DNA of 64,000 nucleotides, taken from positions 84,253 through 148,252 of the forward strand of contig JACKPW010000015.1 of NCBI GenBank assembly GCA_024233215.1, written 5' to 3'. Numbering within the stretch: the stretch's first letter is position 1; each line of letters starts with the position of its first letter. The notes below the pieces were generated by a model. The model did not search any database, was not told where the DNA came from, and saw only the letters and a program-made list of their open reading frames with translations. The translations under genes were made by a program, and so were the position numbers. Positions 6,171-56,267 of this stretch are shown here, one piece after another. This stretch comes from Verrucomicrobiales bacterium. Its GTDB lineage: Bacteria; Verrucomicrobiota; Verrucomicrobiia; Limisphaerales; J093.

Positions 6171-8335
6171 ACGTAGAAACCTTCCGATACGACAACCGAA
6201 TCGTCCGGGCGTTCGCCATTGCCACGTCCATCTGGGCGCTGGTGGGCACCAGCGTGGGGCTGCTGGCCGCCTGCCAGTTGTTCTGGCCGGCGCTGAACCT
6301 CGACACGCCCTTCACCACCTTCGGTCGCATCCGTCCCCTGCACACCAACGCGGTGATCTTCGCGTTTGTGGGGAACGGCATGTTCGCCGGCATCTATTAC
6401 TCGCTGCAGCGGTTGTGCAAGGCCCGCATGTTCAGCGACGCCCTGAGCTGGATCAACTTCTGGGGGTGGAATGCGATCATCGTGTCGGCGGCGGTCACGC
6501 TGCCGCTGGGCCTGACCACCAGCAAGGAATACGCCGAGCTGGAATGGCCCATTGACATCGCCATCGCGGTGGTCTGGGTGGTTTTCAGCATCAACCTCTT
6601 CGGCACGATCTGGAAACGGCGTGAGAAGCACATGTACGTGGCCATCTGGTTCTACATTGCCACCGCGATCACGGTGGCGGTGCTGCACATCTTCAATTCG
6701 CTGGAAATCCCGGCCAGCATCTTCAAGAGCTACTCGATCTACGCCGGAGTGCAGGACGCATTGGTGCAGTGGTGGTACGGCCACAACGCGGTGGCGTTCT
6801 TCCTGACCACCCCGTACCTGGGCCTGATGTATTACTACCTGCCCAAGGCGGCGGATCGCCCGGTGTTTTCCTATCGGCTCTCGATCATCCACTTCTGGGC
6901 GCTCATCTTCATCTACATCTGGGCTGGCCCGCATCACCTGCTGTATACCGCGCTGCCGGATTGGGCGCAGTCGCTGGGCATGGTGTTTTCGGTGATGCTC
7001 GTGGCCCCCAGCTGGGGCGGCATGTTGAACGGCCTGCTCACCCTGCGCGGGGCCTGGGACAAGGTGCGGCGTGACCCGGTGCTGAAGTTCCTGGTGGTGG
7101 CGGTGACCGCCTACGGCATGGCGACCCTGGAGGGGCCGACGCTGGCCGTGAAGAGCGTGAACGCGTTGTCGCACTACACCGACTGGACCATTGCCCACGT
7201 TCACACGGGGGCGCTCGGCTGGAACGGCTTCCTCACGTTCGGCATGCTCTACTGGCTGTTCCCGCGGCTCTACAACACGAAGCTCTGGTCCACCAAGCTG
7301 GCGAACTACCACTTCTGGGTCGGCCTCACCGGGATCATGTTCTACGTGGTGCCGATGTACTGGAGCGGCATCACCCAGGGCCTGATGTGGAAGCAGTTCA
7401 ACGCGGACGGCTTCCTGCAATACCCGGCCTTCCTGGAGACGGTGATCCGGCTGATCCCGATGTACATGTTGCGCGCCATCGGCGGCACCCTGTTCGTGGC
7501 CGGCATCGTGCTGATGATGGTGAATCTCTATCGAACCGCAAAGAGCGGACAGTTCGAACCGGACACCGAGGTCAAGGCTCCGGCGTTGGAGCGCAAGAAG
7601 GCCAAGGGTGCCGAGGGCGACCACGGCCACCGCTGGCTGGAGGGCCTGCCGGTGACCTTCACGGTCCTGACGACCCTGGCCATCCTGATTGGCGGCCTGG
7701 TCGAGATCGTCCCGCTGTACCTCATCAAGGAAAACGTCCCGACCATTGCCAGCGTGAAACCCTACACACCGCTGGAATTGCTGGGTCGCGATCTCTATAT
7801 CCGCGAGGGTTGTGTCGGCTGTCACTCCCAGATGGTCCGGCCGTTCCGTTCGGAAACCGAGCGCTACGGCGAATACTCGAAGGTGGGCGAGTTCGTCTAC
7901 GACCACCCGTTCCTGTGGGGATCCAAACGCACCGGGCCGGATCTGCACCGGGTGGGCGGCAAGTATCCGGACGCCTGGCACTACAACCACATGGAAGATC
8001 CCACCTCAACGTCCGAGGGATCCATCATGCCGCCGTATCCCTGGCTGCTTGAGCGCAAGCTCGACGTCAGCCCGGTGCAGGACCGGATGCGGGCCCTGCG
8101 GAAGGTCGGCGTGCCCTACACCGACGAGGAGATCGCCGGGGCGCAGGAGTCCATCGACGCGCAACGGGCGAAGATCATCGACGGTCTCAAGGTGGGAATG
8201 GTCGATGATGCGGAGCCGGATCGGGAGATCATCGCGCTGATCGCCTTCCTGCAACGCCTGGGCACGGACATCAAGGCCGGTCAGACGGCGGCGGCTCCCG
8301 CCGCCCCGGTGGCCGCCCCAACCTCCCAGAACTAA
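6167..8335 (+). CDS. ccoNO: cbb3-type cytochrome c oxidase, fused subunits I and II (CcoN-CcoO)
   Basis: 722 aa. The N-terminal ~480 aa form a polytopic haem-copper subunit with His ligand motifs (WAGPHHLLY, IAHVHTGALGWNGF). The C-terminal ~230 aa are CcoO-like, with a TM helix and CVGCHSQMVRPF haem-c motif plus WGSKRTGPDLHRVGGKY. Confidence 0.95.
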   Translation: MNVETFRYDNRIVRAFAIATSIWALVGTSVGLLAACQLFWPALNLDTPFTTFGRIRPLHTNAVIFAFVGNGMFAGIYYSLQRLCKARMFSDALSWINFWGWNAIIVSAAVTLPLGLTTSKEYAELEWPIDIAIAVVWVVFSINLFGTIWKRREKHMYVAIWFYIATAITVAVLHIFNSLEIPASIFKSYSIYAGVQDALVQWWYGHNAVAFFLTTPYLGLMYYYLPKAADRPVFSYRLSIIHFWALIFIYIWAGPHHLLYTALPDWAQSLGMVFSVMLVAPSWGGMLNGLLTLRGAWDKVRRDPVLKFLVVAVTAYGMATLEGPTLAVKSVNALSHYTDWTIAHVHTGALGWNGFLTFGMLYWLFPRLYNTKLWSTKLANYHFWVGLTGIMFYVVPMYWSGITQGLMWKQFNADGFLQYPAFLETVIRLIPMYMLRAIGGTLFVAGIVLMMVNLYRTAKSGQFEPDTEVKAPALERKKAKGAEGDHGHRWLEGLPVTFTVLTTLAILIGGLVEIVPLYLIKENVPTIASVKPYTPLELLGRDLYIREGCVGCHSQMVRPFRSETERYGEYSKVGEFVYDHPFLWGSKRTGPDLHRVGGKYPDAWHYNHMEDPTSTSEGSIMPPYPWLLERKLDVSPVQDRMRALRKVGVPYTDEEIAGAQESIDAQRAKIIDGLKVGMVDDAEPDREIIALIAFLQRLGTDIKAGQTAAAPAAPVAAPTSQN

Positions 8336-51021: not shown

Positions 51022-52398
51022 TCAGCCAAGGTAGGCGCCCTGGTGGCGCAGCAGGTCCCGCAGCTTCTCCGGATCCACCTCCCGCGGACGGCACTTGTCC
51101 CGGACCGCGACGCCTGCCGCCGCCCCCGCCGCGTGTCCGGTCAGGAGGCAGGTGGCAATCAGACGCATGTCCTCCACCATCGGCGTGTCCACGTCGAGAC
51201 AACGCCCGGCGGCGATCACGTTGTCCACCGCCTTCGGCACCATGCAGCCATAGGGGATCGCAAAACCGGGCTTGTCCCTGCCGGCCCCGTAGGTGCCGCC
51301 AATCGCAATCGTGTCCGGTTCCCGAACGCCCGAACGAGCCTCCTTGTCGGTCATCTTCCGAACGCCCGCGAGCAGGCGCGTGATGCGCACCCCGATCTGG
51401 GGGGCGATTTGTAGCACGAAGACTTTGTCGGCGCCGGGGACTTCCCGCAGCTTCTCCAGTCGTTTCCAGATACTGCGCCGATGTTCCACCTCGAGCCGGC
51501 TCAACTCCGCAATGTCCAGCCCGTCGGTGCTCGGTCCGCGGAGGTTGACCCACTTCACGCTGGGCAACGGTTCGACGCTGCCAAGGTTCTTGAAACCGGC
51601 TTCCTTGAGCGCTTCCAGGTCGGCGCGATCCACGTTACCCAACCGATGCACGAGGCCGACCGCATGCAGGCGTTGCTCGTGCTCCGCTCCGGCGGCCGCA
51701 AACACGTCGCCATCGCCGGAGGCATCCACGACGACCTTCGCCAGGACCGCCTGGCGTCCCGCTTTGCTTTCCAGAACGACGCCGCGTACGGCGTTGCCGT
51801 CCATCACCACGTCCGCCACCCACGAGTGGAACAACATCCTCACCCCGGCCTCCTGGATCATCTCATCCATCACGAGTTTCGTGAGTTCCGGATCGGTGGT
51901 GGGATCGGGCCTGCCGGCGGTGTAGTTGGTGGCGCCATTCGCATGCTCGGCGATCCGGCCGAGCAGTTCATCACCGATGCCCCGCACGACCTTGGTCAAT
52001 TCGCCGTTCTCGGTGGCGTGCGTCGGATAGACGAGCAGGACCAGTCCGCCGGTCCAGAGTCCGCCGAGATAGCCGTAGCGCTCCACCAAGGTGGTGTTCG
52101 CCCCGGTGCGGGCGGCGGCGATTGCCGCCGTGAAGCCCGCCGGTCCACCGCCGACCACCAACACATCCGTCTCGTGGATCACGCCCAGCGGACGCGCCGG
52201 TTGCAGGACTTTTCCGTCGACCAGTTGGGCGGGATAACGGTCGCGGGCCGTGACGGGAATGACAATGTTCTCCGGCCGCACCGCGCGAGGGGTGTTGGCA
52301 GGCGCCTCATCCGCCACGATGCGGGTGGCGAACGGCGTGCCAAAGCCGGCGGCCGTCAGAAGCTTGAGGAGTCGGCGACGGGAGAATTGAGGTTTCAT
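51022..52398 (-). CDS. Tat-signal FAD-dependent oxidoreductase
   Basis: 458 aa. The Tat motif is SRRRLLKLLTAAGFG and the Rossmann motif is DVLVVGGGPAGFTAAIAAARTG. It has an ATGA overlap with the GH26-like gene. Confidence 0.88.
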   Translation of the reverse strand: MKPQFSRRRLLKLLTAAGFGTPFATRIVADEAPANTPRAVRPENIVIPVTARDRYPAQLVDGKVLQPARPLGVIHETDVLVVGGGPAGFTAAIAAARTGANTTLVERYGYLGGLWTGGLVLLVYPTHATENGELTKVVRGIGDELLGRIAEHANGATNYTAGRPDPTTDPELTKLVMDEMIQEAGVRMLFHSWVADVVMDGNAVRGVVLESKAGRQAVLAKVVVDASGDGDVFAAAGAEHEQRLHAVGLVHRLGNVDRADLEALKEAGFKNLGSVEPLPSVKWVNLRGPSTDGLDIAELSRLEVEHRRSIWKRLEKLREVPGADKVFVLQIAPQIGVRITRLLAGVRKMTDKEARSGVREPDTIAIGGTYGAGRDKPGFAIPYGCMVPKAVDNVIAAGRCLDVDTPMVEDMRLIATCLLTGHAAGAAAGVAVRDKCRPREVDPEKLRDLLRHQGAYLG

Positions 52399-53414
52399 TT
52401 CTCAAGGGTGACAACCTTGGGATCGTTCATCAACTCCCGACCGTTGAGATTGCCGACCACGTTGTAGAATCCTTCGTCACTCCAGAAGACGAAGCCGGCG
52501 AGTTCGGGGAAGTGGTCCTCGAGTTTTCGCAGCACGTCCAGGCAGTCGCGCGGCGGGTCGGACCGACCGCGAATCCCCAGTTCCGCCCACCAGATGACCT
52601 TGTCCTGCTCCCGCTTCTTTGCGACCGCCCATTCGTATTCGGCGAAAGGCAGGCCGGTGCCGTAGGCCGATTTCCCGATGACGTCCACGTAGGCGTCGCC
52701 CGGGTAACAGCGCTGCAGGGCGCCGTTGTTCTGGGTGGTGTGGTAGGCCCAGATGAGGTTGTCGAGCCCCTGGGTGTTCTCGAAGTAGTCGTGGACCAGG
52801 CGGTAGAGCCGGATGATGGCGTCGCTGCCGTTCTTGGCATGCCACTTGTTCCGGTCGTCGCTCTCGACGAACGGCGTGTAGACCACGGGAATCCCCCGGT
52901 CCTTCAGCCAACGCAGATTCGCGGCCATCCGGTCGAGTTGCTCGTGGAAATTGGTCTTGGTGGCGTTGTCGCCGGGCGCCCAGATCTGTGGGATGTCGAC
53001 GGGACCATTCCATCGGTCGCCGGACGGGTTGGCCCAGAAGTTGTAGACGCCGGCGATCATCCCGCGCTCCCAGACCTTCCTGACGCCCTCGTTCCACGCC
53101 GAGTCGGGAAACGGATCATCGACGAAGTCGTAGGTGATGCAGCCATAACGGGGGAGTCGCCCCGTGTGCTCCCGGACCTTCTTGAGCCAGTTGCCGGCCG
53201 CGTCCATGTCGGGATTCTCGTTGTGAACCCAGGTCCCCACCTGACCGAACAGATACGAGCCGTGGCCTCGGGCCTTTAGGAAGGCCAGGACCTCGTCCCG
53301 CGCTTTCGCGGCAGGCTGACGGGAATCCTGGGCTCGGGAGATGGCCAAAGGCGCGCCGATACCGGCGGCGCCGAGGAGCTTCAGGAGTTGTCGACGGGTG
53401 AGTGGGTTATTCAT
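52395..53414 (-). CDS. Tat-signal GH26-like glycoside hydrolase (mannanase-type fold)
   Basis: Start placed at the ATG at 53414 (MNNPLTRRQLLKLLGAAGIG). GH26-like blocks are YLFGQV, PVVYTPFVESDD, NLIWAYHT and YPGDAYVDVIGKSAY. Length is 339 aa. Confidence 0.75.
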   Translation of the reverse strand: MNNPLTRRQLLKLLGAAGIGAPLAISRAQDSRQPAAKARDEVLAFLKARGHGSYLFGQVGTWVHNENPDMDAAGNWLKKVREHTGRLPRYGCITYDFVDDPFPDSAWNEGVRKVWERGMIAGVYNFWANPSGDRWNGPVDIPQIWAPGDNATKTNFHEQLDRMAANLRWLKDRGIPVVYTPFVESDDRNKWHAKNGSDAIIRLYRLVHDYFENTQGLDNLIWAYHTTQNNGALQRCYPGDAYVDVIGKSAYGTGLPFAEYEWAVAKKREQDKVIWWAELGIRGRSDPPRDCLDVLRKLEDHFPELAGFVFWSDEGFYNVVGNLNGRELMNDPKVVTLEK

Positions 53415-53521
53415 GAATCTTCTTCGCAATGGGTGGTGGGGCTCTCTTCAGGAAGCGCTTGAATTTGTCAAACACGGTAGATGTCTAACGCCAGGCTCAG
53501 CGGCGGTACTTCGTCCGCTGA

Positions 53522-53745
53522 AGCCGTTGGTTGGAACTCCGTTTCTGTTTCTCCCGCAGAGGCGCTGAGGCGCAGAGGGAACCCCATTCTCTACCCGGCG
53601 GTTTCTGGTCCGGTTTCCGGTTCGGTTGATCCTCTCTGAGTCGTCTTGGGGTCGGTCTTCGCTCCGACCGTCCTGTCGTTCCGGTTCCGGTCTTCCTCCG
53701 CGCCTCTGCGCCTCTGCGCGAGAAACGCCTTCATCCCATTCAGGT
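53522..53745 (+). repeat. Hairpin element F (GCAGAGGCGC-type arms)
   Basis: The start AGCCGTTGGTTGG is at 53522. The left arm is 53551-53580 (CTCCCGCAGAGGCGCTGAGGCGCAGAGGGA) and the right arm is 53693-53722 (TTCCTCCGCGCCTCTGCGCCTCTGCGCGAG), 26/30 complementary by hand. The core contains CTACCCGGCGGTTTC. Confidence 0.8.
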
Positions 53746-53750
53746 GCCAA

Positions 53751-54039
53751 CAAGTGATTATGCGAGTCTGGATATCACGCCAACCTGGGGTGCTATCCGA
53801 TAAAGCACATTCCCGTGGGCTGGCTTCATTGTTTGCTCGTTGGCTTGGACGCTACTGCAAGTCCGTGGGGCAAAGCAAGATGTTGCGGCGGGCTTGGGTT
53901 GTCCGGGGCGCGTTCCGAGTTTCCTGCCACCGGCTTCCGCATCGCGAGGCGATGCCAGCCATTAGCCGGGGGTTGGGTCCGAGTAGGCTCGGGCCCCACC
54001 CCCGGTGGGCACCGGAACAGGCTTCGCACCCTGGAGGGG
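53751..54039 (+). repeat. Tandem element, copy 1 (about 289 nt; candidate structured RNA or non-autonomous repeat)
   Basis: Both copies start with CAAGTGATTA, exactly 420 bp apart. From TGCTATCCGA onward the copies are about 90-95% identical by eye. Three single-base indels between the copies break every reading frame. Confidence 0.8.
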
Positions 54040-54170
54040 CCATGATGCCGAAATCGAACCGAGCCATGATCCGCATTGCGGTAACCCGCCAACACGGTAG
54101 GTCCACAAGGGGAGGAACGCCGCGCGGACTATTTGAGGGATGTCGCGCGCTCAACGGCCATGCTGTCCAC

Positions 54171-54456
54171 CAAGTGATTACATGAGTCAGAATATCGCTC
54201 CCACGTGGAGTGCTATCCGACAAGGCTCACTCCCGTGGGCTGGCTTCACTGTGTGCTCGTTGATTTGGACGCTACTGCAAGTCCGTGCGGCAAAGCAAGA
54301 TGTTGCGGCGGGCTTGGGTTGTCCGGGCGCGTTCCGAGTTTCCTGCCACTGGCTTCCGTATCGCGAGGCGATGCCAGCTATTAGCCGGGGTTGGGTCCGA
54401 GTAGGCTCGGGCCTTACCCCGGTGGGCACCGGAACAGGCTTCGCACCCCGGAGGGG
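54171..54456 (+). repeat. Tandem element, copy 2 (about 286 nt)
   Basis: See copy 1. This copy ends in the hairpin GCACCCC-gga-GGGGTGC. An inverted copy of its internal motif GCCAGCYATTAGCCGGGG lies at 54558-54575, 12 nt from the relE/parE stop. Confidence 0.8.
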
Positions 54457-54586
54457 TGCCAGAGCGGTCGCGAGCAGGTGCCGCGTCTGCGACCCCGCCG
54501 GGGTCGGATCGGTTTGGGCGTGGTACCGGGGGTCGGCCGGACTTTGGTCCGGGCGAGCCCCGGCTAATGGCTGGCAGCCCTCCGGG

Positions 54587-54886
54587 CTACTGTCCTGTTC
54601 GATTCTTCCAGTAATCCGGGTCGCGGTGGAGATGCATGACGGCCATGACGGCGATGACGTTCGGCTCGATGCGGAACAAGACGCCGAAGGGAAACGTCTT
54701 GGTAAGACATCGGCGTACGTCCCCATCGACAAAAGAGTAGAGCTCGGGATTGAGTTGGATCCGGTTGAGGGCGTCCTGGACCGCTACGAGGAAACGTTTC
54801 CCCAGGTCTTCCTGTTGCGACTCATACCACACCGCAGCATTGAGCATCTCTGCGTCTGCATCGGGATGGAAACGGACCGGTTTCAC
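54587..54886 (-). CDS. Type II toxin, RelE/ParE family
   Basis: 99 aa with a GTG start overlapping the antitoxin stop (GTGA). The sequence MKPVRFHPDADAEMLNAAVWYESQ...FPFGVLFRIEPNVIAVMAVMHLHRDPDYW has typical ParE/RelE-like architecture. Confidence 0.8.
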   Translation of the reverse strand: MKPVRFHPDADAEMLNAAVWYESQQEDLGKRFLVAVQDALNRIQLNPELYSFVDGDVRRCLTKTFPFGVLFRIEPNVIAVMAVMHLHRDPDYWKNRTGQ

Positions 54887-55113
54887 GCAAGAGCCGCACG
54901 AGCTTTCGCAAACACATCGGCGGCATCACGCAACTCCAGCGCGCCCTCGTCGATCTCCCGACAGCGTCTCCGGACCTCCTCGCGCCACTTCGGGGAGATA
55001 TCCTCTCCGGGGCCGGCCTCGAGGCTTTCGATGAGGCGTTCCGCCACAAACGCACGCCCCTGTGGGGGAAGGGCCAGGGCCTCCGTGACAATCTTCTCTG
55101 CCGTCATGCTCAT
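54883..55113 (-). CDS. Antitoxin ('addiction module component' family)
   Basis: Start placed at the ATG at 55113 (MSMTAEKIVTEALALPPQGRAFVAERLIESLE...ISPKWREEVRRRCREIDEG). This is the conserved pattern of the small helical antitoxins paired with ParE/RelE. Length is 76 aa. Confidence 0.75.
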   Translation of the reverse strand: MSMTAEKIVTEALALPPQGRAFVAERLIESLEAGPGEDISPKWREEVRRRCREIDEGALELRDAADVFAKARAALA

Positions 55114-55175
55114 GTTGGAAGAGTGCCCCGCGAGTATTCCGTGGTCAATGTGCCGGTTTGAGAGACCCTGCAAAC

Positions 55176-56267
55176 TCAGCGTGAACTGCGGAGTTCCGGC
55201 AGGATGATCTGTTCGATGGCGTGATGGGAGATCATGTGGCTCGGGGCCGTTTCATCGATCTCGAGGCGGAACGCCCCGTCGCCGATGCCAGCGAGTGCCG
55301 CCTGGACCTGGCGTTCGTAACGGCGCATGGCTTCCTCATACGGCAGGCCGGTGGCCGGCTCGTCGTGTTGGGCTTCGCCAAAACAGCAATCATCCCGGCG
55401 CCCCAGGATCTGCACCTGCCTGCGTCCCTCCCCAAGCGCCCCGAGGACGTAGAGGTCCGGATACCCGGCCAGGCGGTAGAACGACGGTTCGAATTGCTCC
55501 CGATCCCCAACGGACCCACCCGCGCGCAGATACAGGGGGATCGAACCCGCCACCGGGAAGCTGCACCGGATGGTCGGGTCCAAGGCGGCATAGACGGTTG
55601 TGGTCCATCCGCCACCGGAGAGTCCGATCATGTGGAAGGCCCGGTATTGGAGGGAACCGTCCGGGGTTTTGGCCTGCTTCAAGTGGTTCAGTCCAATCGC
55701 CGTGGATTCGAGGAACAGCCGGATGGGACTGCGGGAATCGTGGTTCTGCTCGAACATCGCGTTGTGGCCGCCGGTGCAATCCCCCGGACGCATGTGAGGC
55801 ATGAAGACACCGAGCACGCCGTAGCCTTCACGGAGGAGGGCGTGGATTGTTCGCTGCAAACCGTACCCCACGTCCGCCGGGCCGGGATCGTCATCCAGGG
55901 TGCAGCCGTGGCCGTGATGCAGGACCACGAGTTCCCGATTGGGGTGTTCGGGGACAAAGTGCCAGGCCCGGCCCTCCAGGTCGGGGGCGAGGTTCATTTG
56001 CAGTTCGTCCACGCGGTCGAGGTGGTCCAGAGACTGCACCGGGGAGGGGATGTTCGTCCGGACGACGTCCGGTTGGCGTTGTGCCGGGAAGCCGTCCTTT
56101 CCCCAGAGATGGTCGATCAAGGCCGCGCGTTTTGCGGCCGCGTCGGCCTCCGAAAGGACCGTGATGTTGCGGTCGTCCAGCAGTGTGGCGGCCACGACGG
56201 AGGTGAACGGTGAAGCGGCCGCCAGCAGCGACGCGAGGGACAGCACGGACGCGAGGTTGTGGCGCAT
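55176..56267 (-). CDS. Secreted alpha/beta-hydrolase (esterase-like)
   Basis: Start placed at the ATG at 56267 (MRHNLASVLSLASLLAAASP, a signal peptide). The nucleophile elbow is GLSGGG and an HHGHG block is present. Length is 363 aa. Confidence 0.75.
   Translation of the reverse strand: MRHNLASVLSLASLLAAASPFTSVVAATLLDDRNITVLSEADAAAKRAALIDHLWGKDGFPAQRQPDVVRTNIPSPVQSLDHLDRVDELQMNLAPDLEGRAWHFVPEHPNRELVVLHHGHGCTLDDDPGPADVGYGLQRTIHALLREGYGVLGVFMPHMRPGDCTGGHNAMFEQNHDSRSPIRLFLESTAIGLNHLKQAKTPDGSLQYRAFHMIGLSGGGWTTTVYAALDPTIRCSFPVAGSIPLYLRAGGSVGDREQFEPSFYRLAGYPDLYVLGALGEGRRQVQILGRRDDCCFGEAQHDEPATGLPYEEAMRRYERQVQAALAGIGDGAFRLEIDETAPSHMISHHAIEQIILPELRSSR

Follow-up and report, generated by a model that had tools for sequence, protein, structure and literature searches.

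A repeated intergenic region beside a parE-type toxin gene in a Verrucomicrobiales bacterium probably carries three copies of a hairpin-rich mobile DNA module

We analyzed a 64,000-nt stretch of a Verrucomicrobiales genome (contig JACKPW010000015.1, positions 84,253 to 148,252; hereafter the window), which has a G+C content of 65%. A 1.15-kb gap in the window separates a GH26 glycosidase gene (52395-53429, minus strand) from a toxin-antitoxin pair, a parE-type toxin gene and an antitoxin gene (54587-55173, minus strand). Two copies of a 293-nt repeat lie in this gap. We propose that the region probably contains three copies of a ~100-nt non-autonomous mobile module, resembling the repetitive extragenic palindromes (REPs) and their doublets (REPINs) or the TIRtrons, and that the 293-nt repeat arose by secondary local duplication.

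Copy A (53747-54039) and copy B (54167-54456) are 90% identical over 293 nt (blastn E=5e-110; aligned with MAFFT). A preliminary description of this DNA had noted an identical decamer at the start of both copies, ~90-95% identity past a variable beginning and three 1-nt indels, all of which hold: the decamer CAAGTGATTA lies at 53751 and 54171, a spacing of exactly 420 bp, identity is 88% in the first 161 nt and 93-98% beyond, and the indels fall at alignment columns 166, 229 and 260. Two of these indels form a compensating pair, G53968 and C53999 both being missing from copy B, one in each arm of a hairpin (P2, described below). There are three occurrences of the motif GCCAGCYATTAGCCGGGG (53954+, 54373+ and 54558-) where 0.15 are expected in the window, a count reached in 0/100 shuffles; the third (54558-54575) is inverted, as had been described. 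Neither blastn nor a covariance model (CM) search found additional copies of the 293-nt unit in the window. The unit is a composite of two parts of different origin, local DNA of ~160-190 nt (X) and a ~105-nt mobile module (Table 1).

To follow the module beyond the window, we scanned a genome collection of 596 Gb for the 19-mer TGCCAGCYATTAGCCGGGG. The exact 19-mer is present in at least 115 contigs, mainly from Verrucomicrobiota, Planctomycetota and Methylococcaceae, and the 115 loci analyzed (numbered with the prefix L) are the matches listed. Among these, single or few contigs are labelled Acidobacteriota, Omnitrophota, Kuenenia, Gallionella or Kapaibacterium, and individual metagenome-assembled genomes (MAGs) contribute 7-10 or more module loci. 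By blastn, similarity between the window and the 115 loci is confined to ~53900-54040 and ~54360-54590, and window positions 53740-53899 match none of them; therefore, the dispersed object is the ~100-nt module. The earlier suspicion of a dispersed repeat thus stands for the 3′ module and falls for the 290-nt unit. From 99 copies outside the window we built a CM, which returned exactly three matches in the window (M1, M2 and M3; next best E=0.08). The tails that follow the two copies are unrelated to each other, as had been claimed, but the second (54457-54586) turned out to be the inverted third module, M3, of which the inverted GCCAGCYATTAGCCGGGG is a part. Three of the 115 loci (L019, L045 and L085, from Allorhizobium, Craterilacuibacter and one other source) share only the 19-mer, with no flanking similarity and no CM match; we take these as chance matches, of which about three are expected in 596 Gb.

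These results bear on the simplest alternative, a mere local tandem duplication of meaningless intergenic DNA containing no element. About two-thirds of the unit (X) would suit it, being local, having a homologue only in the closest relative and drifting freely between copies. The 3′ third, however, matches a cross-phylum family at E values of ~1e-10 to 1e-11 under a model made from other genomes, and a third, inverted module copy adjoins it. For the module part, the 19-mer dispersal and the CM matches refute this alternative, which we consider very improbable overall.

Table 1. Features of the repeat region and the adjoining toxin-antitoxin genes (window coordinates)
Feature	Position	Strand	Basis and remarks
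X_A, local non-mobile DNA	53747-53905		Homologous to L116:240-370
Outer extension of M1 (GGGCGCGTTCCGAGTTTCCTGCCA...)	53906-53936	+	Degenerate form of the GCGCATCTCAGTTTCTTGCA block; flank comparison; blastn coverage begins at ~53900-53910
Module M1, solo	53937-54043	+	CM, 56.2 bits, E=1e-10; 3′ arm of P3 unpaired
Parts of M1	P1 53939-53955; linker CAGCCATTAGCC 53956-53967; P2 53966-54005 (inner stem 53975-53996); P3 54026-54039		
Unique spacer (tail A)	54044-54166		No homologue found
X_B, copy B of local upstream DNA	54167-54324		Aligns with L116; 88% identical to X_A
Outer extension of M2	54325-54355	+	Copy alignment and flank comparison
Module M2, complete (P1, linker, P2, P3), left half of convergent doublet	54356-54462	+	CM, 61.0 bits, E=8.6e-12
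Center of M2/M3 doublet, 24 nt	54463-54486		Same as the most frequent gap (21-26 nt) among 60 convergent doublets elsewhere
Module M3, complete, inverted, right half of doublet	54487-54592	-	CM, 60.3 bits, E=1.2e-11; 19-mer inverted at 54558-54576
parE-type toxin gene	54587-54886	-	Pfam PF05016, 30.7 bits; outside repeat
Unstab_antitox antitoxin gene	54883-55173	-	Pfam PF09720, 44.6 bits; outside repeat

Family alignments define the module as ~100-105 nt comprising three hairpins, P1, P2 and P3, and the conserved linker CAGCCATTAGCC. P1 has the consensus GCAWCCC-GNA-GGGWTGC, and P2 the consensus CCGGGGG...CCCCCGG around a small variable inner hairpin; after a ~20-nt spacer follows P3, which is P1-like (GCACCCC or CGACCCC-GNA-..., then CAG). 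The local hairpins pointed out in the preliminary description, CATCGC-gag-GCGATG, GGGTCCGAG-tagg-CTCGGGCCC and GCACCCC-gga-GGGGTGC, are the P1, inner P2 stem and P3 of the window modules. In M1 the 3′ arm of P3 is missing, since the duplication stops at 54039.

Across 107 sequences, pairing in the three helices reaches 95.2%, compared to 34-57% with slid partners. The helices show 240 double-sided changes, compared to 8-45 with slid partners and 87.5 in shuffled alignments, with 0/500 shuffles matching the observed value. RNAalifold independently yields the same helices. P2 occurs as GGGGG/CCCCC, GGGGA/TCCCC and GGTGG/CCACC; its 5′ arm is held constant by the 19-mer-based collection of loci, and among copies ascertained through a protein (see below) P2 still covaries (GGTGG/CCACC, CCCGGGG/CCCCGGG), invariance being limited to ATTAGCC. 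Covariation of the three helices is strong. Of three helices proposed from the window alone, the first (CATCGC/GCGATG) is P1 and is supported by the family. The segments of the other two exist, yet the second (53927/54002) overlaps the covarying 3′ arm of P2 and recurs in none of the other copies, and the third (53817/53954) pairs the linker with X, which lies outside the element.

The strand that folds can be read from the pairs that close the loops. At two loop-closing pairs, T.G occurs 42 times across the family and C.A about once, so the folded strand is the one bearing the 19-mer; this agrees with the earlier observation that C-to-T differences in the local hairpins pair only on the plus strand. 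The window copies behave in the same way. From the outer extension through the module to 54039, the copies differ at 8 positions in 134 nt, six of them C<->T transitions and the other two the compensating pair of 1-nt deletions in P2, and the C<->T changes in P1, the inner P2 stem and P3 retain G.T pairing on the plus strand. X_A and X_B differ at 21/159 positions, with mixed substitution types. G-N-A triloops close 84/99 P1 and 68/99 P3 hairpins, and GCGNAGC is present in 47/97 inner P2 stems; d(GCGNAGC)-type sequences form unusually stable DNA mini-hairpins. Folded as single-stranded DNA (ssDNA), M2 and M3 together make a single long hairpin (-80.4 kcal/mol, z=-5.7).

Modules are mostly found as inverted doublets. 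Among 191 modules in 100 loci, 64/87 adjacent pairs are convergent; 60 of these have gaps of 6-105 nt (mode 21-26 nt), and the remaining 4, with gaps of 463-507 nt, enclose a transposase gene, tnpA. M2 and M3 likewise converge across a gap of 24 nt. The modules have no fixed orientation relative to genes.

When all open reading frames (ORFs) of the 115 loci were clustered, the sole recurrent neighbor family was a ~148-aa protein found in 10 loci, plus two partial copies. It matches Pfam Y1_Tnp (PF01797) at 78-86 bits and passes the NCBIfam IS200/IS605 equivalog model (NF033573; 61-63 bits, cutoff 55). Its best solved relatives are the Y1 transposase PDB entries 2fyx and 2xm3, which we take to be ISDra2 TnpA. 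Twelve sequences share an invariant DHxH, a W and Y114-x3-Q118-E-x-H121-H122 (Y---Q--HH), as well as a conserved C-terminal tail, SFREEL..LL.K.GV.YD..YL. In L017, L047, L055 and L073, tnpA lies between a plus and a minus module.

As these loci had been gathered through the repeat itself, we tested the link from the protein side. A protein search gave 2863 transposase homologues at E<=1e-20, some of them labelled "REP element-mobilizing transposase RayT" (JGI) and some "IS200/IS605 family transposase" (NCBI). We examined six tnpA genes on long contigs picked by protein similarity alone (12 loci). In 6/6 a plus module ends 10-50 nt before the ATG, and in 4/6 a minus module begins 6-25 nt past the stop codon. 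The tnpA flanks are inverted copies of one CM-defined module, with slightly different linkers (CCAGCC versus CGAGCG/CAAGCC). Since modules bracket tnpA and short-gap doublets dominate, we infer that [module +]-tnpA-[module -] is the autonomous form and that the commonest derived form is the convergent doublet [module +][module -], the same unit minus the gene. The CM found 185 and 37 module matches (222 in total) in loci, compared to 12 tnpA genes in the 115 19-mer loci, a sample gathered through the repeat.

The structural evidence could also be read as RNA. Under this alternative, the modules are primarily functional RNA transcribed from the UGCCAGCCAUUAGCCGGGG-bearing strand, as a 3′ untranslated element or a small-RNA pair that, for example, stabilizes or terminates the parDE transcript. 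Strong covariation that admits G.U but not A.C on one strand is what such an RNA would show, M3 begins within the parE stop codon in sense orientation, and both copies fold better as RNA than shuffled sequences do (z=-2.6 and -3.8). A sister motif is also catalogued in Rfam as a probable RNA, and Di Nocera et al. 2013 (PMC3733652) records the hypothesis that classical REPs influence transcription termination and mRNA stability. Against these points, the modules reach no Rfam family, a simple scan of the gap found no sigma-70 promoter or intrinsic terminator pattern, and the modules are mostly convergent doublets without fixed orientation to genes. They adjoin an ssDNA transposase gene in 6/6 unbiased cases, which alone would explain the structural constraint, and their three hairpins carry G-N-A triloops closed by C-G, a type that is stable in DNA. 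We consider a primarily RNA function unlikely. The bracketing of tnpA, the doublets in both orientations, the G-N-A triloops and the lack of an Rfam match favor DNA hairpins as the selected form, with RNA-level side effects on the parDE transcript possible. The structured noncoding RNA pair suggested in the preliminary description is thus not needed, as hairpins for an ssDNA Y1 transposase account for the covariation.

The Rfam sister motif deserves separate mention. At the gathering threshold, no Rfam family matched the modules in the window or in 18 loci, and an E-value scan gave only sub-threshold Acido-Lenti-1 and chance microRNA and small-RNA matches. The window modules score 19.9, 18.6 and 14.8 bits against Acido-Lenti-1 (RF01687; gathering threshold 37), on the strand opposite to the folded one. 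The Acido-Lenti-1 RNA motif, from Weinberg et al. 2010 (PMC2864571), resembles the opposite strand of the module in having a hairpin, a GGCUAAU..UG.C linker and a hairpin with a CUUCGG/CUCCGG loop; it differs in being catalogued as RNA on that other strand and in its linker, which at L003 is GGCAGGTCGTAGC. One genuine RF01687 match exists in the fetched loci (L003:7791-7834, 41.9 bits). It is an arm of a convergent 46-nt pair, 7617-7662 / 7791-7836, 98% complementary, within the region 7520-7941, laid out as hairpin, linker GGCAGGTCGTAGC, second hairpin, an inner third-hairpin pair, a 35-nt center and outer 30-nt inverted repeats. This single locus suggests that Acido-Lenti-1 may be an antisense reading of a sister DNA-repeat family.

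The other part of the 293-nt unit, X, has a different history. The X core (53779-53910) aligns with L116:240-370 with a score of 39, compared to 10.2+-1.3 for shuffled sequences (z=22), and the corresponding part of copy B (54199-54329) scores 33 (z=16). L116:240-370 is the DNA just upstream of a DUF4357-GH26 operon, in the same orientation relative to GH26 as X. The conserved ~130-nt non-coding block shared by the window and L116 holds an almost identical 20-mer, GCAAAGCAARATGTTKCGGC. The most conserved 20-mer of X is not dispersed, as a metagenome scan gave six chance matches only. Given its homology to the upstream region of the L116 operon and its lack of dispersal, X is ancestral local DNA; it may be a promoter or leader of that operon, although a simple sigma-70 scan gave no match. 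In the closest relative, L116 (85% identical GH26), and in L117 (75%), another gene abuts GH26, and there is no gap, toxin-antitoxin pair or module. Modules are thus missing at the orthologous sites of both relatives, a comparison of the kind called for in the preliminary description. No significant DUF4357 remnant was found in the gap. Tail A shows no similarity to the tail of copy B, to L116 (z=1.0) or to other loci, and contains no significant TnpA or DUF4357 remnant.

The homology of X to L116 also decides against a further alternative, that each copy, outside its module, is a decayed tnpA and as a whole a dead autonomous element. One TnpA gives a faint tblastn match to 54057-54182 (E=6.9), and there is some resemblance by eye (NRAxI...GGTxRGL...HxVH). 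However, a TnpA profile hidden Markov model (HMM) scores ~0 bits on all six frames of 53430-54600, no tnpA-bearing locus shows DNA similarity, and X aligns instead with the relative's operon upstream region. The HMM result and the X/L116 homology refute this reading, and we give it hardly any credence.

For the mobile-module interpretation, we propose the following history. A cognate transposase, which we assume to be encoded elsewhere in the source genome, would act in trans, recognizing the hairpins on one strand of transiently single-stranded DNA and cutting and rejoining close to the hairpin feet. Cleavage near hairpin feet has been shown for the TnpA proteins of IS608 and ISDra2 and for E. 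coli TnpA-REP. Recognition of hairpins by an ssDNA transposase would keep the stems paired and the linker constant. The doublet (M2 and M3) would have inserted beside X at the 3′ end of parE, and a 293-nt piece, X with its adjoining module, would then have been duplicated, with one join-point inside P3 of M1. In Salmonella, tandem duplications are documented to join at REP sequences, which fits this history. Thereafter X would drift freely, while the module would be constrained to change only where its hairpins survive. Of the three explanations offered at the outset, a miniature inverted-repeat transposable element (MITE) comes closest, the modules being parts of a non-autonomous mobile element.

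At the parE end, the P1 stem of M3 takes in both the final codon of parE (CAG) and its stop codon (TAG, 54589-54587). The Pfam ParE match stops at residue 89/99. Together, these suggest that the M3 insertion may have replaced the native 3′ end of parE.

A role in site-specific recombination was the third suggestion, and in its most specific form the modules would be integron attC-like or other recombination sites delimiting a toxin-antitoxin cassette. Toxin-antitoxin, restriction-modification and nuclease genes often adjoin modules, and a GTTRRRY-like heptamer lies within GGGGGTTGAGC. Yet the GTT is not invariant (GTC, GCT and GTA variants occur), and convergent doublets have neither the R''...R' geometry nor the same-orientation arrays of attC sites. 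No recurrent integrase appears among the neighbors of the loci, and modules lie on only one side, the parE side, of the toxin-antitoxin pair, so that they do not bound an insertion. We regard this possibility as extremely improbable; the modules do not fit the pattern of integron attC sites (an R'' RYYYAAC ... R' GTTRRRY pair around an imperfect palindrome, in same-orientation arrays with an integrase nearby).

Several observations weigh against the mobile-module interpretation or against its likeness to REPs. The covariation and the G.T/G.U asymmetry are equally compatible with RNA and ssDNA. The 64-kb window contains no transposase gene (best tblastn E=0.3). We found no empty/filled site pair, so that element ends, target and mobility are putative; searches for the module on plasmids or viral contigs gave no match that would indicate a route for cross-phylum spread. 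The modules have no conserved GT[AG]G foot: the 5′ consensus of P1 is nnGCAWCCC, without GTAG, and the GTAG in M3 (CAGTAGCCC) is unique to that copy. The transposase also fails the NCBIfam REP_Tyr_transpos model (NF047646), with 21-25 bits against a cutoff of 80. With neither the foot nor a REP_Tyr_transpos match, this is not a classical REP/RAYT pair (RAYT, REP-associated tyrosine transposase).

The likeness to the proteobacterial REP/REPIN-RAYT systems, or REPtrons (Nunvar 2010; Bertels & Rainey 2011, PMC3116915; Quentin 2018, PMC6006769), is nevertheless broad: extragenic hairpin repeats occur mostly as inverted doublets, a Y1/HUH transposase gene is bracketed by inverted copies of the repeats, and mobilization is presumed to occur in trans on ssDNA. 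REPs greatly outnumber their transposase gene, and modules may do so too, to judge from the repeat-gathered sample. In contrast, a classical REP is a 20-40-nt palindrome with a GT[AG]G foot, whereas the module is ~100 nt with three hairpins, a 12-nt conserved linker and no foot; RAYTs carry the motif Y---NP, whereas the module-linked transposase has the IS200-like Y---Q--HH. The hosts differ as well, being mainly bacteria of the Planctomycetota-Verrucomicrobiota-Chlamydiota (PVC) group and Methylococcaceae, with few Acidobacteriota and others.

In TIRtrons (Di Nocera et al. 2013, PMC3733652), a Y1 transposase (TIRYT) sits between long inverted repeats that are not related to GTAG REPs; dimers or clusters of these repeats are found at other sites in the genome, and some of the repeats are self-complementary. 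A Y1 transposase flanked by modules that also occur as doublets falls under this definition. The fit is not exact: the published repeats share at most a GGGGWSAS motif, which the module does not match exactly, and the paper describes neither a three-hairpin module nor an ATTAGCC linker.

The transposase itself resembles TnpA-Y1 subclass 1.2, which is defined by Y---Q--HH, is found mostly in Cyanobacteria and Bacteroidetes, and is described as low-copy, generally without terminal secondary structures and with no reported REP association (Quentin et al. 2018, PMC6006769). Shared features are the Y---Q--HH motif, small size and closeness to IS200 transposases; the conserved C-terminal tail may correspond to the C-terminal domain specific to the subclass. 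Unlike subclass 1.2 as published, the examples here adjoin structured inverted modules, on both sides in 4/6 protein-ascertained cases, and occur in other hosts.

Members of the IS200/IS605 family (IS200, IS608, ISDra2) likewise combine a Y1/HUH transposase containing Y---Q with hairpins at both ends of a ~0.7-kb unit and an expected single-strand mechanism. Those elements end in distinct left and right subterminal hairpins on a single strand, with no terminal inverted repeats. Here, one and the same module stands inverted on either side of tnpA, and tnpA-less doublets dominate. As in MITEs, the inverted-repeat doublet corresponds to the autonomous element minus its transposase gene (gap 6-105 nt versus 463-507 nt). 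No target-site duplication is evident in the flanks; Y1 transposons are not expected to produce one.

We found no description of this combination of module architecture and transposase subclass in the searchable literature. Whether the three-hairpin ATTAGCC module and the Y---Q--HH, subclass 1.2-like Y1 transposase form an undescribed REPIN/RAYT-type system, with Acido-Lenti-1 as the antisense of sister DNA repeats, seems to us an evenly balanced question. For this window, a puzzling structured tandem RNA would become an ordinary REPIN-like doublet insertion at the end of a toxin gene plus a small local duplication. REPIN/RAYT biology has been studied mainly in Gammaproteobacteria; if our interpretation is correct, it extends to methanotrophs and PVC bacteria, where the transposase belongs to another clade and the DNA module is much more elaborate. 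TnpA-Y1 subclass 1.2, an orphan group described in print as having neither terminal structures nor insertion sequence properties, would gain a likely substrate and role, and at least one Rfam "RNA" family would need re-examination as a DNA repeat. The interpretation would also account for the spurious ORFs that recur in these MAGs and for breaks between their contigs. The ATTAGCC linker, invariant while the hairpins on either side of it covary, offers a ready target for biochemical work on substrate recognition by Y1 transposases.

Long spurious ORFs traverse the modules, in the window (53646-55207) and in many loci. The recurrent spurious peptides ...AISRGL... and ...PRLMAG... arise when the linker region is translated, and one such ORF cluster covers 15 loci, in line with the earlier remark that similar motifs underlie spurious ORFs. 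'CAT' in conserved flanks prompted a search for a conserved ORF starting on the opposite strand beside the module, and none was found. A sigma-54 reading of the flank motif GGCGCA...TTGCA was rejected by inspection on account of wrong spacing. No tRNA or tmRNA was found in the window. Between X_A and the start of GH26 lies a 32-nt inverted repeat (53547-53726), whose arms are 91% complementary and separated by 116 nt. It is built from tandem units of 8 nt (CGCAGAGG x3 / CCTCTGCG x3) and bears no relation to the modules.

Genes beside modules are often toxin-antitoxin, nuclease or restriction genes (L001, L081, L084, L062 and L005; weaker cases L036 and L054). Pfam confirms HTH_3, BrnT, DUF4258, GIY-YIG and Mrr_N among these neighbors, and HicB-like and MazE-like matches fall below threshold.

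Beyond P1, doublets carry conserved, lineage-specific blocks 20-25 nt further out on both sides: GCGCATCTCAGTTTCTTGCA in Verrucomicrobiota (L115, L106, L041, L052, L039, L002) and GTTCCCAAGC..CTCATCGTTATACACAA in Methylococcaceae (L065, L062, L090, L108, L077). The tnpA-bracketing modules examined do not have them. These blocks may represent the actual ends of the element, regions for cleavage or guiding, or favored target sites. Within one unit, the left and right modules often belong to different subtypes (L017, L073, L121, L123, L065, L062, L100, L115), one with the linker CCAGCCATTAGCC and its partner with CGAGCGATTAGCC or CAAGCCATTAGCC, and their P1 stems differ; M2 and M3 of the window are both of the CCAGC type. 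These subtypes are reminiscent of the Y/Z REP pairs in E. coli bacterial interspersed mosaic elements.

At L036:6448-7043, a Y---Q--HH transposase that is divergent (35% identity) has on both sides inverted hairpin repeats of its own, CGCTAGCACCGGGCTTCAGCCCGGTGGCC, which are 97% complementary, with a further copy upstream; this suggests that each transposase lineage has cognate repeats. Many tnpA homologues are on contigs <1.5 kb, many of them sub-kilobase, consistent with repeats breaking assemblies. In L125:1-6447, L129 and L130, the tnpA unit is found in a type I restriction-modification operon, flanked by hsdS and by a Fic/DUF4062 gene, after which comes hsdR.

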